Shown here: in pieces, positions 1,774-4,732 of the stretch | How positions within the stretch are numbered: the stretch's first letter is position 1 | How the letters are laid out: each line of letters begins with the position of its first letter | Position numbers and translations under genes: made by a program | Origin: a virus | Reading direction: 5' to 3' (one strand) | Virus genome (UHGV): UHGV-0083157 | DNA: 10,230 nt | Notes under the pieces: generated by a model | Seen by the model: only the letters and a program-made list of their open reading frames with translations | Databases searched by the model: none | What the model was told of the DNA's origin: nothing

Positions 1774-2508
1774 ATGAAAGAGATGACAGAACAAGGTAAA
1801 GGGATTTTCAATCTCCTGAAATCCGGTAACGGGTTTTCTAACCCTCTTATTACCGGTGCAGCAATCCTTGGTGGCACAATTGCTGCTTCTACTTCATTAG
1901 TAAGCTCTCTTAGCTCGGTATCAGACCCTACTGTACAAGATAAGCTTATTGCGGCTGGTTTAACAGTAGCACTATTAAGTAGCTTTACAACAAGTCTGGG
2001 AAGCACAACCTCAACAACCAATACACTGACCAAATATGGACAGAAGTCTGTAGATGAGTTTTCACAGCGTATGCAAGTAGCTAAAGGTTACTCTAACGTT
2101 ATGGGAGCAGCAGGTGAACAGGTTGGTTGTACTCCATTTAGTGGAATCATGGGAGTTGCTACTGAGTACGGTAACAAAGCAATGGAACTGATTAACACCT
2201 CTTTAGATGCTGTGAATGACGTTCTAAGCGATTTACAAGATGCAATTGACCAAGGACTAGCAACCATCGAAGAACTCGCCTCACAAGCCGTTACAGCGAT
2301 TAATCAGGGCATTGCTAAGATTACTGCATATGCTAATGAGGTCACTCAGATGATTGCAGATGAAGCAGCGTTAATTGCTGATTACTTGAAAACGAATATT
2401 AATGGTTTCCTTGCAGGTGTCTTACCAGACTGGTTTGATGATGCTTGTAAAACTGGCGTGATTGATTCAATCGCAACTCCAGAAATGAAGGATGCCTTGA
2501 ACAAATAA
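1774..2508 (+). CDS. Hypothetical protein (244 aa; Ser/Thr/Ala/Gly-rich low-complexity N-terminal half with a hydrophobic segment, acidic helical C-terminal half)
   Basis: ATG 1774 with AAAGG/AAGGTG upstream (1763-1769); open frame to TAA 2506-2508; sits 17 nt after the CCA of tRNA-Phe and 2 nt before tRNA-Ser. No recognisable catalytic motif. Confidence 0.6.
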   Translation: MKEMTEQGKGIFNLLKSGNGFSNPLITGAAILGGTIAASTSLVSSLSSVSDPTVQDKLIAAGLTVALLSSFTTSLGSTTSTTNTLTKYGQKSVDEFSQRMQVAKGYSNVMGAAGEQVGCTPFSGIMGVATEYGNKAMELINTSLDAVNDVLSDLQDAIDQGLATIEELASQAVTAINQGIAKITAYANEVTQMIADEAALIADYLKTNINGFLAGVLPDWFDDACKTGVIDSIATPEMKDALNK

Positions 2509-2510
2509 TT

Positions 2511-2600
2511 GGAAGATTAACCCTAAAAGGTAAGGGAACAGTTTGCTAAACTGTCAGTAACCGAGAAATCGGCGTACCAGTTCAAGTCTGGTATCTTCCT
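2511..2600 (+). tRNA. tRNA-Ser (anticodon GCT), type II with long variable arm
   Basis: Acceptor GGAAGAT (2511-2517) is the perfect complement of ATCTTCC (2593-2599); anticodon stem ACAGT/ACTGT perfect (2538-2542/2550-2554), loop TTGCTAA (2543-2549); long variable arm with CCGA-GAAA-TCGG stem (2555-2575); T-arm ACCAG-TTCAAGT-CTGGT; discriminator T2600; CCA 2601-2603. Confidence 0.8.
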
Positions 2601-2610
2601 CCAATTTAAT

Positions 2611-2683
2611 GCGTCGATGACAGAAATGGCTATGTGCCTGTCTGCAAAACAGGATTATGAGGGTTCGACTCCCTTTCGACGCT
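2611..2683 (+). tRNA. tRNA-Cys (anticodon GCA)
   Basis: Acceptor GCGTCGA (2611-2617) is the perfect complement of TCGACGC (2676-2682); anticodon stem CCTGT/ACAGG perfect (2637-2641/2649-2653), loop CTGCAAA (2642-2648); T-arm GAGGG-TTCGACT-CCCTT; discriminator T2683 (Cys identity U73); CCA 2684-2686. Confidence 0.8.
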
Positions 2684-2721
2684 CCAAATTATTTTACTCT
2701 CTCTCAAAATAAAATAATAAC

Positions 2722-2780
2722 GCCCTGCTACGAGTATTCTTCCTTTCGCTACCGAAGAGTATTTTTAGACAGGGCTTTTT
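2722..2780 (+). terminator. Putative rho-independent terminator (long imperfect hairpin plus T-tract) downstream of the tRNA array
   Basis: GCCCTG (2722-2727) pairs with CAGGGC (2770-2775), with an inner TCTTC/GAAGA stem (2738-2742/2754-2758), immediately followed by TTTTT (2776-2780). Confidence 0.45.
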
Positions 2781-2794
2781 TACAGATGTATACT
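2765..2794 (+). promoter_or_regulatory. Candidate sigma70-like promoter (TTAGAC - 18 nt - TATACT)
   Basis: -35-like TTAGAC 2765-2770 and -10-like TATACT 2789-2794; AT-rich context. Weak sequence-only call; it overlaps the preceding terminator stem. Confidence 0.2.
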
Positions 2795-2846
2795 TTATAA
2801 GAAGACTTATACAGTATGTCTCTGGCATACATTGTGGTTTCTCCTT

Positions 2847-2870
2847 GACGGTCTCTGCGCCGTCTTTTTT
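2847..2870 (+). terminator. Putative rho-independent terminator/attenuator hairpin directly upstream of the packaging-head operon
   Basis: GACGG (2847-2851), 8-nt loop, CCGTC (2860-2864), followed by TTTTTT (2865-2870). Confidence 0.45.
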
Positions 2871-2908
2871 AAGGGGAGCCATTCACTTATTATTTTTGGA
2901 GAAATACA

Positions 2909-3109
2909 ATGAACGAGACTAATGTTTACAAAGAACTTTATGATGCAAACAAAAGAGCCGAACTGTTACAGAACACTATTATTAGTGTTGCTCACCGTCT
3001 GGCTAATGCAACTGGTAAAGATATTAAAGAAACCAATATGGATGAACTGTTAGATGCAGTTGATGTAAAGTTTGGTGTTAAGTCTACCGAAGAAGTTGCT
3101 GCTGAATAA
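2909..3109 (+). CDS. Hypothetical small protein (66 aa) immediately upstream of the large terminase
   Basis: ATG 2909 with GGAG (2898-2901, 7-nt spacer); stop TAA 3107-3109; acidic, helical-looking. Too short for a confident small-terminase call. Confidence 0.5.
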   Translation: MNETNVYKELYDANKRAELLQNTIISVAHRLANATGKDIKETNMDELLDAVDVKFGVKSTEEVAAE

Positions 3110-3130
3110 TTCTATTTGCGGAGGCGCTTA

Positions 3131-4732
3131 ATGGATTTGAATGCTGTTAAGCAGAAGCGAGTGGAAGATGTAAGGAGAGTCCTAGCTGGAGAGTTGGGAC
3201 TTTCTGATGAAGTTAAAGATATTATCAAGTCATTTGGTAAAGACCCCTCTAAATTCCTTCCTACTCAGATTCTGACTTTATTAAGATACACTCCAGACCA
3301 AGTAAGACTTATCTTCAAACTTATGACTGATAAGAACTATGTAGCTCCACAACCCGGCTCTCAGGAAGTATTTCTTAACACAAATGCTGACTTAGTTCTG
3401 TATGGTGGTGCTGCTGGTGCTGGTAAGACTGCTGCTTTGCTGATGGATTCACTCAGATTTATCGAAGACCCTAACTATAACGCTGTATACTTCCGTCGAA
3501 ACACGACACAGTTACAAGGTGGTTTATGGCCTGCTGCGAAGAAGCTTTTTGGTAAGTTCGGTGGTGTCCCACATGAACAGAAGATGACTATTGTATTCCC
3601 TTCTGGGGCTACTATCAAGTTTACCTACTTAGAACTTGAAAAACACGCTGAAGGTCATCAGGGTATTGAATACTCAGCAATTTACTTTGACGAAGGTACA
3701 CACTTCTCTGCGTCACAGATTTCATACCTACAAACACGTCTTCGTTCTGGTGCTGAAGGTGACTCTTACATGAAGATTTCCATGAACCCAGACAGAGACC
3801 ACTTCATTTACGATTGGGTAGAACCATTCTTAGACGAAGAAGGTTATCCAGACCCTGAGAAATGTGGTCGTATTCGTTGGTATGTGATGAGTGATGGCGT
3901 GATGGTATCTGATTGGGATAGAGACAAGATTCTTGAAATGTTTCCTCTGGAGATTCCTCAGACGTATACTTTTATCTCTGGTACGATTGATGATAACCCA
4001 ATTCTTGACTTCTTGGAACCGAAGTATCGTGGTAAGCTTGAAAACAACACTCCAGTAAACGTTGCACGTTTGAGATTTGGTAACTGGAAAGCTCGTGCAG
4101 AAGGTTCTAACTATTGGCAAAGGCAATGGTGTGAGATTGTTGATTCAGTTCCACCTGATGTATTTGATGTTAGAGCATGGGACTTAGCGGCTACTTTACC
4201 TTCTGAAGTTAACCCTAACCCTGACTGGACAGCGGGTGTTAGAATGGCTAAATCTAAAAAAGATGGTTGCTATTATGTCATGAACGTAGTAAGATTTAGA
4301 GATAGACCTTCTGGAGTCGAGACACAAATTAACTTGACTGCTGAAAGCGACGGCAAACGTACTGGTATCTTTATTCCTCAAGACCCAGGCGCTGCTGGTA
4401 AATCCTACGCAACATCTCTTATCAGAAAACTTGCCGAGAAAGGTTATCGTGCAAGAGCCAAACCAACCAATAAAGATAAAGTTACCCGTTTTGCGGGTTT
4501 CTCTGCTGCTTCTGAAGCAGGATTGGTAAAAATCGTTAGAGGTAGCTGGAACGAAGCCTATTTCCAAGAACTTGAAGGTTTTTGTGGAGATGGGAAAACC
4601 AAGGATGACCAAGTGGATGCCACAAGCGATGCTTTCAACAGTCTCAACGAAGTAAAACTATTCAAGCCGCCTTCTATGGGTACTCACACTGATTTAGTGA
4701 GAAGCAATCCTTATGAGGGGCTTAGACGTTAA
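3131..4732 (+). CDS. Terminase large subunit (533 aa from ATG 3131; ORF track uses an upstream TTG at 3116)
   Basis: GGAGG (3120-3124) 6 nt before ATG 3131; Walker A-like LVLYGGAAGAGKTAA; Walker B-like AIYFDEGTHF; C-terminal nuclease-like region with VRAWDLAAT; size and position before the portal gene are typical of TerL. Confidence 0.85.
   Translation: MDLNAVKQKRVEDVRRVLAGELGLSDEVKDIIKSFGKDPSKFLPTQILTLLRYTPDQVRLIFKLMTDKNYVAPQPGSQEVFLNTNADLVLYGGAAGAGKTAALLMDSLRFIEDPNYNAVYFRRNTTQLQGGLWPAAKKLFGKFGGVPHEQKMTIVFPSGATIKFTYLELEKHAEGHQGIEYSAIYFDEGTHFSASQISYLQTRLRSGAEGDSYMKISMNPDRDHFIYDWVEPFLDEEGYPDPEKCGRIRWYVMSDGVMVSDWDRDKILEMFPLEIPQTYTFISGTIDDNPILDFLEPKYRGKLENNTPVNVARLRFGNWKARAEGSNYWQRQWCEIVDSVPPDVFDVRAWDLAATLPSEVNPNPDWTAGVRMAKSKKDGCYYVMNVVRFRDRPSGVETQINLTAESDGKRTGIFIPQDPGAAGKSYATSLIRKLAEKGYRARAKPTNKDKVTRFAGFSAASEAGLVKIVRGSWNEAYFQELEGFCGDGKTKDDQVDATSDAFNSLNEVKLFKPPSMGTHTDLVRSNPYEGLRR

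Follow-up and report, generated by a model that had tools for sequence, protein, structure and literature searches.

We examined a 10,230-nucleotide (nt) stretch of the virus genome UHGV-0083157, called the window below, and in particular the 222-nt intergenic gap at positions 2687–2908, which lies between the gene for a cysteine transfer RNA (tRNA-Cys) on its left and an open reading frame (ORF) of 66 amino acids (2909–3109) on its right. By sequence comparison the window is that of a Suspvirus (Ounavirinae), a Felix O1-like myovirus: its closest relatives over positions 2400–3300 are the Escherichia phages CHB7, mistaenkt, and EcSzw-2 (97–98% identity), and phiSUSP1 is 98.6% identical over 2600–2960. 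Upstream of the gap runs a plus-strand tRNA array (76–2686) of 12 tRNA genes and two ORFs of unknown function (DUF7338 and DUF7217); past the 66-amino-acid ORF, on the same strand, follow the genes for TerL, portal, protease, and major capsid protein. In mistaenkt this strand is unbroken from a divergent promoter region, via the tRNA array and ~23 kb of genes for packaging, head, tail, and lysis, to an end terminator. We propose, with moderate confidence, that positions 2722–2870 form a conserved boundary module between early and late genes, which acts as plus-strand RNA.

Terminator-like hairpins in the gap

The elements of the module, followed by its surroundings, are listed here.

2722–2775, plus strand: hairpin HP1 of terminator T1, 54 nt (folding, alignment)
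2776–2781, plus strand: T6 tract of T1 (read from the sequence; invariant in alignment A3, which holds 30 distinct sequences)
2783–2824, plus strand: long, irregular three-helix hairpin D2 with an AAGN loop (RNAalifold consensus)
2814–2830, plus strand: hairpin HP2, GUAUGUC-UCU-GGCAUAC, mutually exclusive with D2 (alignment pairing)
2830–2846, plus strand: pyrimidine-rich strand CAUUGUGGUUUCUCCUU (invariant in the 30 sequences)
2847–2864, plus strand: hairpin HP3 of terminator T2, GACGGU-CUCUGC-GCCGUC, 6 base pairs (bp) (top terminator-like site in the window)
2865–2870, plus strand: T6 tract of T2 (read from the sequence; invariant in the 30 distinct sequences)
2871–2882, plus strand: purine tract AAGGGGAGCC, similar to a Shine-Dalgarno sequence and forming the 3′ side of helix E (RNAalifold consensus)
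2687–2721, plus strand: variable AU-rich spacer, GC content 0.17 (alignments and GC content; 60–89% identity to other genera, with indels)
2611–2686, plus strand: tRNA-Cys(GCA), last of the array (ARAGORN; Rfam tRNA, 55.8 bits)
2909–3109, plus strand: 66-amino-acid ORF, phrog_4397, first gene of the late block, directly 5′ of TerL (ORF list, annotation of relatives)

An initial annotation of this stretch had described two terminator-like structures that set the tRNA array apart from the late operon, and both points stand: T1 (2722–2781) and T2 (2847–2870), each with a T6 tract, occupy the gap between tRNA-Cys and the block formed by the 66-amino-acid ORF and TerL. Its description of the segment between them as AT-rich is correct in composition, modestly so (GC content 0.34, against 0.41 for the window), but the segment is no spacer, being both conserved and structured; the truly AT-rich, indel-prone part is 2687–2721, which lies 5′ of T1. 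The entire gap folds at −68 kcal/mol (z = −6.8). Pattern counts in the window do not exceed those in shuffled sequence (18 promoter-like sites versus 19.8, and 6 terminator-like sites versus 6.9), and since they stand at chance level the case stands on folding z-scores and conservation.

HP1 consists of a lower stem, GCCCUGCUA/UAG-A-CAGGGC, an 11-bp upper stem, and an 11-nt loop, CUUUCGCUACC, with GCCCUG/CAGGGC at the stem base. In a 67-nt context (2718–2784) T1 folds at −25.6 kcal/mol (z = −6.1), none of 200 shuffled sequences being as stable, and the minus strand at this place folds worse than the plus strand. When both strands of mistaenkt (86.7 kb, 98% identical) were scanned, T1 was the most stable combination of a hairpin and a T run in that genome, at −24.2 kcal/mol. 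Across the alignment, 99% of the cells in HP1 are paired and two pairs have changed on both sides, from U-A to C-G in the Moogle-like clades and from U-G to A-U in L091, a gut metagenome sequence in which the upper stem is remodeled and the loop different while the base stem and the U tract are unchanged. As judged from folding and alignment, T1 thus has the anatomy of an intrinsic terminator, with a stable GC-rich stem, an adjacent U tract, and compensatory changes in the stem.

T2 is weaker, with a predicted energy of about −7.5 to −8.9 kcal/mol (z = −2.3) and G-C at four of its six stem pairs. All cells of HP3 are paired in the alignment (100%), the closing pair being U-G, U-A, or C-G and another pair alternating between A-U and G-U; L091 has two stem changes that leave pairing intact, and the Erwinia phages carry a T2 with another stem sequence (GUGGCG/CGCCAC plus CU5) at the equivalent position. 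The predicted formation of HP3 is 0.97–0.98 for every assumed 5′ end. With its stem, abutting U tract, and covariation in relatives, T2 too has intrinsic-terminator anatomy on these models. A rough score of the d'Aubenton-Carafa type is positive for T1 (4.0) and borderline for T2 (~0).

The pair resembles known tandem or attenuator arrangements of intrinsic terminators in that GC-rich stem bases are followed by U6, T1 would end an RNA-gene operon, and T2 sits in the next leader; here, moreover, the stems covary and the U tracts are invariant. It departs from them in the length of T1 (54 nt, 20 bp, 11-nt loop), whose loop is conserved within three genera. A classical attenuator would be expected to have an alternative, antiterminator pairing, and for T2 no upstream complement of either arm was seen on inspection.

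The RNAalifold consensus on alignment A3 has three domains, namely HP1, D2, and HP3 enclosed by helix E. The last of these helices, which joins 2836–2846 to 2871–2882, encloses T2 in read-through RNA; 92% of its cells are paired, the changes being mainly A/G opposite U, and the segment 2834–2884 folds at −20.7 kcal/mol (z = −4.0). Such structures could also be read as signals for RNA processing or stability, HP1, D2, and helix E with HP3 (16–20 bp, with internal loops) being RNase III-type sites or elements that protect against RNase E, with the T tracts secondary; they would then separate the tRNA precursor from the late mRNA and stabilize the ends. The intergenic RNase III sites of phage T7 offer the comparison. 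The hairpins are indeed long and irregular, at about two helical turns, read-through is evidently common in this genome, and helix E, which needs read-through RNA, nevertheless has an invariant 5′ strand and a 3′ strand that is mostly A/G opposite U. Neither T6 tract varies, however, and both directly follow GC-rich stem bases, which is what a terminator needs; processing alone does not explain the temporal boundary described below. We regard processing as an unlikely main function of these hairpins.

Conservation and pairing of the plus-strand RNA

Homologous regions were gathered from GenBank phages, IMG/VR, and metagenomes, which yielded the 30 distinct sequences of the alignment. Between the window and Felixounavirus (wV8), Mooglevirus (Moogle), or a third clade (L043), the core at 2722–2870 is 93–95% identical. 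For comparison, the third codon positions of the flanking genes are 55–73% identical, two tRNA genes 89–93%, and the adjacent non-coding flanks 60–89% with indels; the 66-amino-acid protein shares 56–58% identity with that of Moogle. By this sequence measure the purifying selection on the core is about equal to that on the tRNA genes.

The central hairpin D2 is built from the helices CAGA/UCUG, UAUACU/AGUAUG, and UAUAAG/CUUAUA. All of its cells (100%) are paired in the alignment and two pairs have changed on both sides, through series of A-U, G-U, and G-C and, in L091, from A-U to U-G, while all four bases occur at the fourth position of the apical loop, as for a loop base. Its z-score is −2.8 in the window, −6.2 in L091, and −3.7 in the Erwinia phages, where the topology is the same and the inner sequence different. 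HP2, the alternative to D2, is likewise paired in 100% of its cells, with switches between U-A and U-G at two pairs, and its Erwinia counterpart is GUAUGU-UUCG-GCAUAC. Over the whole module 98–100% of the cells form standard pairs, compared with 30–64% when partners are slid by one to three columns; three to four pairs have changed on both sides, and switches from U-A to U-G are numerous. Since the G-U intermediates would be A-C mismatches on the opposite strand, the constraint acts on plus-strand RNA, and on this sequence evidence we conclude that the module works in that form.

This asymmetry bears on whether the conserved unit might be an element of the DNA, such as a pac or cos site or genome end, an operator for a helix-turn-helix (HTH) protein at the palindrome that D2 forms over the candidate −10 element discussed below, or a replication signal. 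The position directly upstream of the terminase operon would suit such an element, as would conservation that reaches into loops and single strands, and D2 forms an imperfect palindrome that covers the −10 and start region, in a phage that encodes a Cro/CI-type HTH protein. Stems that accept G-U and not A-C point to plus-strand RNA instead. Moreover, one paper describes direct terminal repeats (determined with PhageTerm) for such phages, and the site lies ~16 kb from the start of its record PP886229 (vB_EcoM_E9), which, provided that the record starts at the physical end, makes it probably internal and no genome terminus; headful packaging is reported in another paper, and the motifs occur once per genome. 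A DNA-level role appears highly improbable to us.

Still less credence, indeed almost none, is due to a small protein gene over the region. ORFs are present, one on the plus strand (2657–2800, 47 amino acids) and one on the minus strand (2882–2694, 62 amino acids), and comparable ones are annotated in wV8, Mushroom, Silverhawkium, and phiEa21-4: wV8 gene 55 (L008, 352–600), Mushroom gp085 (L009, 358–585), Silverhawkium gp84 (L010, 455–679, minus strand), and phiEa21-4 gene 44 (L014, 1027–1215). Yet start, frame, and length vary (62, 58, 36, and 31 amino acids, and different again in L091), the plus-strand ORF starts within tRNA-Cys, and substitutions track base pairing rather than codons. Judging from these sequences, the hypothetical-protein genes annotated across tRNA-Cys and T1 are probably spurious.

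A pattern search of IMG/VR with the motif of HP2 plus the pyrimidine strand found one copy per genome. The corresponding metagenome search added one new lineage, the gut metagenome sequences L091 and L105, which have the same tRNA array and keep T1, D2, HP2, the invariant strand, and T2. Eight further matches (L086, L089, L090, L092, L095, L098, L103, and L110) were rejected as carriers of the module, the surrounding module being missing, and appear to be chance matches. No known family corresponds to the RNA: with Rfam 15 the best match in region 2680–2915 had E = 1.9, with 13–19 bits against gathering scores of 35–53, and in the window and its Erwinia counterpart tRNAs were the only Rfam matches.

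The Erwinia phages (Kolesnikvirus), whose TerL is 66–69% identical over the first 261 residues, show a module of almost completely diverged sequence. After the last tRNA they have a D2-like three-helix hairpin, HP2 with a UUCG loop, the strand UUGCGGUUUCCUUUG, and T2, to which they add a third canonical terminator immediately 5′ of the ribosome-binding site. Two terminators before the late operon, though at different positions, would on this sequence comparison be a theme shared with the Erwinia phages. In a more distant lineage (L040 and L041, IMG/VR 3300045988 contigs; TerL 64% identical to the Erwinia type) the module is absent altogether: in L040 (378–1300) a terminator at 464–483 comes right after the last tRNA and is followed by a 211-amino-acid ORF, which ends 10 nt 5′ of a 72-amino-acid homologue of the 66-amino-acid ORF.

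Some smaller observations concern the flanks. Just 3′ of tRNA-Cys, within the variable spacer, a CT-dinucleotide tract (CTCTCTCTC, 2697–2705) differs between relatives in its number of repeats (+2, +4 nt); this small microsatellite, hypervariable beside an ultra-conserved core, is itself anti-Shine-Dalgarno-like. In phiEa21-4 a Cys-like tRNA (L014, 980–1053; GCA anticodon region, 41.8 bits with Rfam tRNA), missed by ARAGORN and unannotated, holds the position of the window's tRNA-Cys. On the other side, the longest TerL frame begins with TTG at 3116, and related records use ATG at 3131, with GGAGG seven bases upstream; the gap from the end of the 66-amino-acid ORF at 3109 to TerL is then ~20 nt, and translational linkage may be possible.

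Transcription across the boundary

Expression data for Felix O1 place the gap at a change of temporal class. By reverse transcription PCR, ORFs 45, 46, 48, and 49 of the tRNA region are early, with maxima at 5 min, and ORFs 51 and 53 peak at 60 min and TerL (gp52) at 25 min, in a noisy table that also lists some structural ORFs at 5 min (PMC3185647, Table 3). ORF 49, homologous to the DUF7217 ORF, is the last real gene ahead of the gap, ORF 51 is the homologue of the 66-amino-acid ORF, and ORF 53 follows TerL. With the early class upstream and the middle and late classes downstream, 2687–2908 is a temporal boundary. The genome paper states that temporal control and the passage of many terminators are not understood in Felix O1, and T1 and T2 are absent from its table of terminators (PMC3185647).

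Terminators close to gene starts are common genome-wide. In mistaenkt we found at least 10 short canonical terminators, each 5–15 nt ahead of the Shine-Dalgarno sequence of the gene that follows on its strand (for example 34895–34878, 30578–30558, 23287–23272, 19177–19158, 15571–15556, 9590–9575, 59074–51, 79533–46, and 81048–63), with sequences such as GGCTCCTTCGGGAGCC plus T5–6 and a frequent tail TTTTTCGTAT; the one at 59074–59051 lies inside the late operon. A distance of 5–15 nt leaves no room for a promoter, so read-through of terminators must be routine, and either read-through or a role in stabilizing mRNA ends seems, from the sequence, to be a genome-wide design. By the same token a terminator ahead of genes is not specific to the late operon. 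The fallback offered in the initial annotation, that the signals simply end tRNA-array transcripts, goes part of the way and fits T1 well.

A candidate promoter overlaps T1 and D2.

2766–2794, plus strand: sigma-70-like promoter candidate, −35 TAGACA (2766–2771), 17-nt spacer, −10 TATACT (2789–2794) (10/12 match)

The initial annotation had recognized a promoter-like pair of hexamers here, and a sigma-70-like pair is indeed present, although the register it gave (TTAGAC-18-TATACT) is better read as TAGACA-17-TATACT. Listed first of the six window sites that score 10/12, and optimally spaced, the candidate has its −35 within the 3′ arm of HP1 and an expected start at ~2800–2802; at the rate seen in the window, ~0.07 sites scoring at least 10/12 would be expected by chance in 222 nt of one strand. 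The hexamers are invariant in the enteric-phage lineages and in L091, which gains an extended −10 TG, but both lie within conserved RNA helices, and their conservation is therefore no independent evidence for a promoter. In the corresponding region of the Erwinia phages no promoter-like site was found. In mistaenkt the other 10 intergenic sites scoring at least 10/12 all have a perfect TTGACA, three of which evidently drive the tRNA array, and the candidate alone differs. We found no shared late-promoter motif elsewhere in the phage genome, TATACTTTATAAG-like sequences occurring only at this site, and the remaining promoter-like site of the gap (2882–2910) would start 3′ of the AUG of the 66-amino-acid ORF. 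That the candidate is a real promoter strikes us as plausible, if short of an even chance.

The relation of the candidate to D2 is informative about the origin of the RNA. Because D2 spans the −10 and the start at ~2801, an RNA begun there would be unable to form D2 and would form HP2 instead; because D2, with its −10 and start sequences, is backed by covariation, some functional RNA must begin upstream of the candidate promoter. From these sequence relations we conclude that RNA from upstream that reads through T1 must exist and matter.

The initial annotation had likened the gap to the pR′-tR′ arrangement of phage lambda, in which, transferred to this phage, a constitutive promoter at 2766–2794 would yield an RNA of ~70 nt up to T2 and a Q-like factor would act late. 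The layout is in its favor: a promoter-like site, a short leader of ~70 nt corresponding to the 6S RNA of lambda, a terminator, and a long late operon follow one another in the right order, a further terminator lies inside the late operon (mistaenkt 59074–59051), the downstream genes are middle or late, and the passage of terminators is unexplained in the Felix O1 paper (PMC3185647). The search for a Q-like antiterminator that the initial annotation had suggested gave no annotated one: the string "antitermin" has no match in any of the supplement files of the SUSP1 PHROGs/CD re-annotation, a search of annotations that did not extend to a scan of all proteins against the Q families. The sole transcription-class gene among SUSP1 agp001–077, many phage proteins being of unknown function, encodes one regulator, whose mistaenkt counterpart is a Cro/CI-type HTH_3 protein. 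Added to this, the Erwinia relatives have not kept the promoter-like site, the −35 is TAGACA where every other intergenic candidate has TTGACA, and the structured leader, unlike that of lambda, overlaps the promoter, with D2 requiring an RNA begun upstream of the supposed start. A lambda-type switch is very unlikely on this evidence, and the proposal is not sustained.

Repeats elsewhere in mistaenkt may be pertinent to a phage regulator. The 8-mers CTTTTAAG and CTTAAAAG are concentrated at the record's left end and in both of its divergent promoter regions (50–182, 36150–36282, and 78337–78408), and repeats of TCTTAACA and TGTTAAGA cluster near its right end (86105–86601); these may be sites for such a regulator, for example the HTH_3 protein gp74.

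The start of the first late gene and a model for the module

The pyrimidine-rich strand has three candidate partners, 2801–2811, 2871–2880, and the region from the Shine-Dalgarno sequence to the AUG of the first late gene.

2898–2911, plus strand: Shine-Dalgarno sequence (GGAG) to AUG of the 66-amino-acid ORF (minimum-free-energy fold of 2776–2911; RNAduplex)

The strand at 2830–2844 (CAUUGUGGUUUCUCC) is complementary to GGAGAAAUACAAUG at 2898–2911 over 14 bp with one bulge, and this is the minimum-free-energy pairing in RNA 2776–2911. The duplex is predicted at −18.5 kcal/mol for L091 and between −17 and −21 kcal/mol for every enteric-phage lineage, and it holds though the bases that separate the Shine-Dalgarno sequence from the AUG vary (UAC versus CAU opposite G-U-G, and an A-to-U change). 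None of 2000 shuffled sequences gave as good a duplex, and the strand's own start region, that of the 66-amino-acid ORF, ranks second among 132 initiation regions of the genome. Pairing with 2801–2811 (helix C, with 2832–2844) was considered as a conserved structure and is disfavored, column 91 being unpaired in 9 of the 30 sequences; that column is the freely variable loop base of D2. In many Felixounavirus sequences (wV8 type; L008, ~668–706) a mini-ORF of eight codons, ATG GTT AAC TAT TTG GAG AAA ACA TAA, follows the Shine-Dalgarno-like tract located after T2, and its stop overlaps the ATG of the 66-amino-acid ORF (TAATG); the mini-ORF's ATG is not found in all relatives, nor in the window.

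Could the transcript from the candidate promoter to T2 be a free-standing small RNA? A trans-acting RNA of ~70 nt would comprise HP2, a U-rich strand, and the terminator U6, and would act on host or phage mRNAs by pairing its CUCC-containing strand with their ribosome-binding sites. Hfq-binding small RNAs usually have this layout, and 2801–2870 folds in just this order, as a stem-loop, an unpaired stretch, and a terminator; the single strand is invariant, and against several start regions of the phage it is predicted to pair at −15 to −18 kcal/mol. The complement of 2831–2846 (16 nt, up to three mismatches) was found nowhere else in the phage genome, however, the best partner lies in cis, 55 nt downstream, the promoter is doubtful, Rfam gave no match (the best, again, at E = 1.9), and covariation backs D2, which is impossible in an RNA that starts at 2801. 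There is in our estimation little likelihood of a trans-acting role.

From the observed anatomy, conservation, covariation, and complementarity we infer the following course of termination, its efficiency, initiation, and effects on translation. Transcripts of tRNA-Cys would run on into T1, and T1, as a strong intrinsic terminator, would end the tRNA-operon transcripts, whose TTGACA-type promoters lie both within the array and ahead of it. Positions 2783–2870 (~90 nt) would serve the late operon, with its packaging and morphogenesis genes, as a structured 5′ leader, and the weaker T2 at the end of that leader would act as an attenuator, such that only polymerases passing T2 would enter the ~23-kb late operon. 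The leader RNA could be supplied by read-through of T1, by the candidate promoter overlapping T1, or by both. By pairing with the region from the Shine-Dalgarno sequence to the AUG, the strand 2830–2844 would likely damp translation of read-through RNA as well.

Phage T4 provides a precedent for such translational control. In its genes e, soc, 49, and I-TevI, read-through transcripts hide the start region, and the block is relieved in transcripts from late promoters; there the inhibitory 5′ strand is encoded by DNA in which the late promoter itself is situated, and late RNA consequently begins without that strand (PMC3014915). The present arrangement is alike in that, for a late gene within potential reach of early read-through transcripts, the Shine-Dalgarno sequence and AUG have a complementary strand further upstream, and differs in that the candidate start at ~2801 lies upstream of the inhibitory strand 2830–2844. 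With the promoter so placed, relief would need a relay, D2 against helix C, which folding weakly supports. By analogy, the T4 cases and tandem or attenuator terminators would be the functionally closest precedents. T4 also makes the small stable RNAs C and D from its tRNA region, with role unknown (PMC3014915), and the likeness of a structured, conserved, non-coding RNA directly 3′ of phage tRNA genes is a positional parallel only.

A more elaborate possibility, speculative and unlikely as a whole, is that the module senses transcript origin at two levels, by a three-strand relay and an attenuator. Early read-through RNA would fold D2, leaving 2830–2844 free to close the start region of the first late gene; in RNA initiated at the promoter D2 would be missing, and its 5′ end (2801–2811) would capture 2830–2844 and leave the start region open. 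Were this so, late structural genes would stay silent in early read-through transcripts and be expressed from those of the late promoter. In four lineages the predicted accessibility of the start region is indeed lower in D2-containing RNAs (0.04–0.23) than in RNAs starting at 2801 (0.14–0.45). We have nevertheless set aside promoter-dependent opening of the start region: the four lineages agree in its direction, but it is a modest effect that longer context reverses.

A number of observations weigh against the boundary module as we propose it. Accessibility of the start region reaches ~0.48 with longer upstream RNA and ranges overall from 0.04 to 0.49 depending on upstream length; as longer context reverses the effect, the accessibility result is not robust. 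Several other start regions are nearly as complementary to the leader strand (z of about −2.3), which resembles a generic anti-start-region sequence and is of modest specificity. The Erwinia phages lack complementarity of leader and start (~−6 kcal/mol), their hairpin at the position of HP1 has no U tract, and, given these differences, only part of the model is general. Other terminators are also near-identical between Felix O1 (PMC3185647, Table 2) and mistaenkt, and conservation of T1 and T2 alone is thus nothing special; what is distinctive is the 65 nt between them and the loops. The compensatory changes probably come from few evolutionary events, which makes the covariation statistics supportive but short of conclusive. 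That D2 contains the putative −10 and start argues against the promoter as sole source of the RNA, and our literature search found no transcriptome of a Felix O1-like phage.

By analogy with phage HK022, the conserved leader RNA may itself make RNA polymerase resistant to terminators. The put RNA of HK022 is a cis-acting antiterminator RNA, and both cases have stem-loops ahead of terminators where a long operon begins, and no recognizable antiterminator protein in the phage. Here, however, there is one element per genome, with many of the terminators in other operons. If correct, such a property would explain how many terminators are passed without a known antiterminator.

The boundary module that we favor consists of ordinary parts in an arrangement that has not been described for these phages and was previously unannotated. 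Felix O1-like phages are widely used for Salmonella and E. coli, in typing, in biocontrol, and in therapy. Engineering near the terminase gene, a common point of insertion and genome opening, should spare the module. For the switch to late genes it gives a defined and mutable target, at which termination, read-through, promoter use, and translational gating can be addressed.

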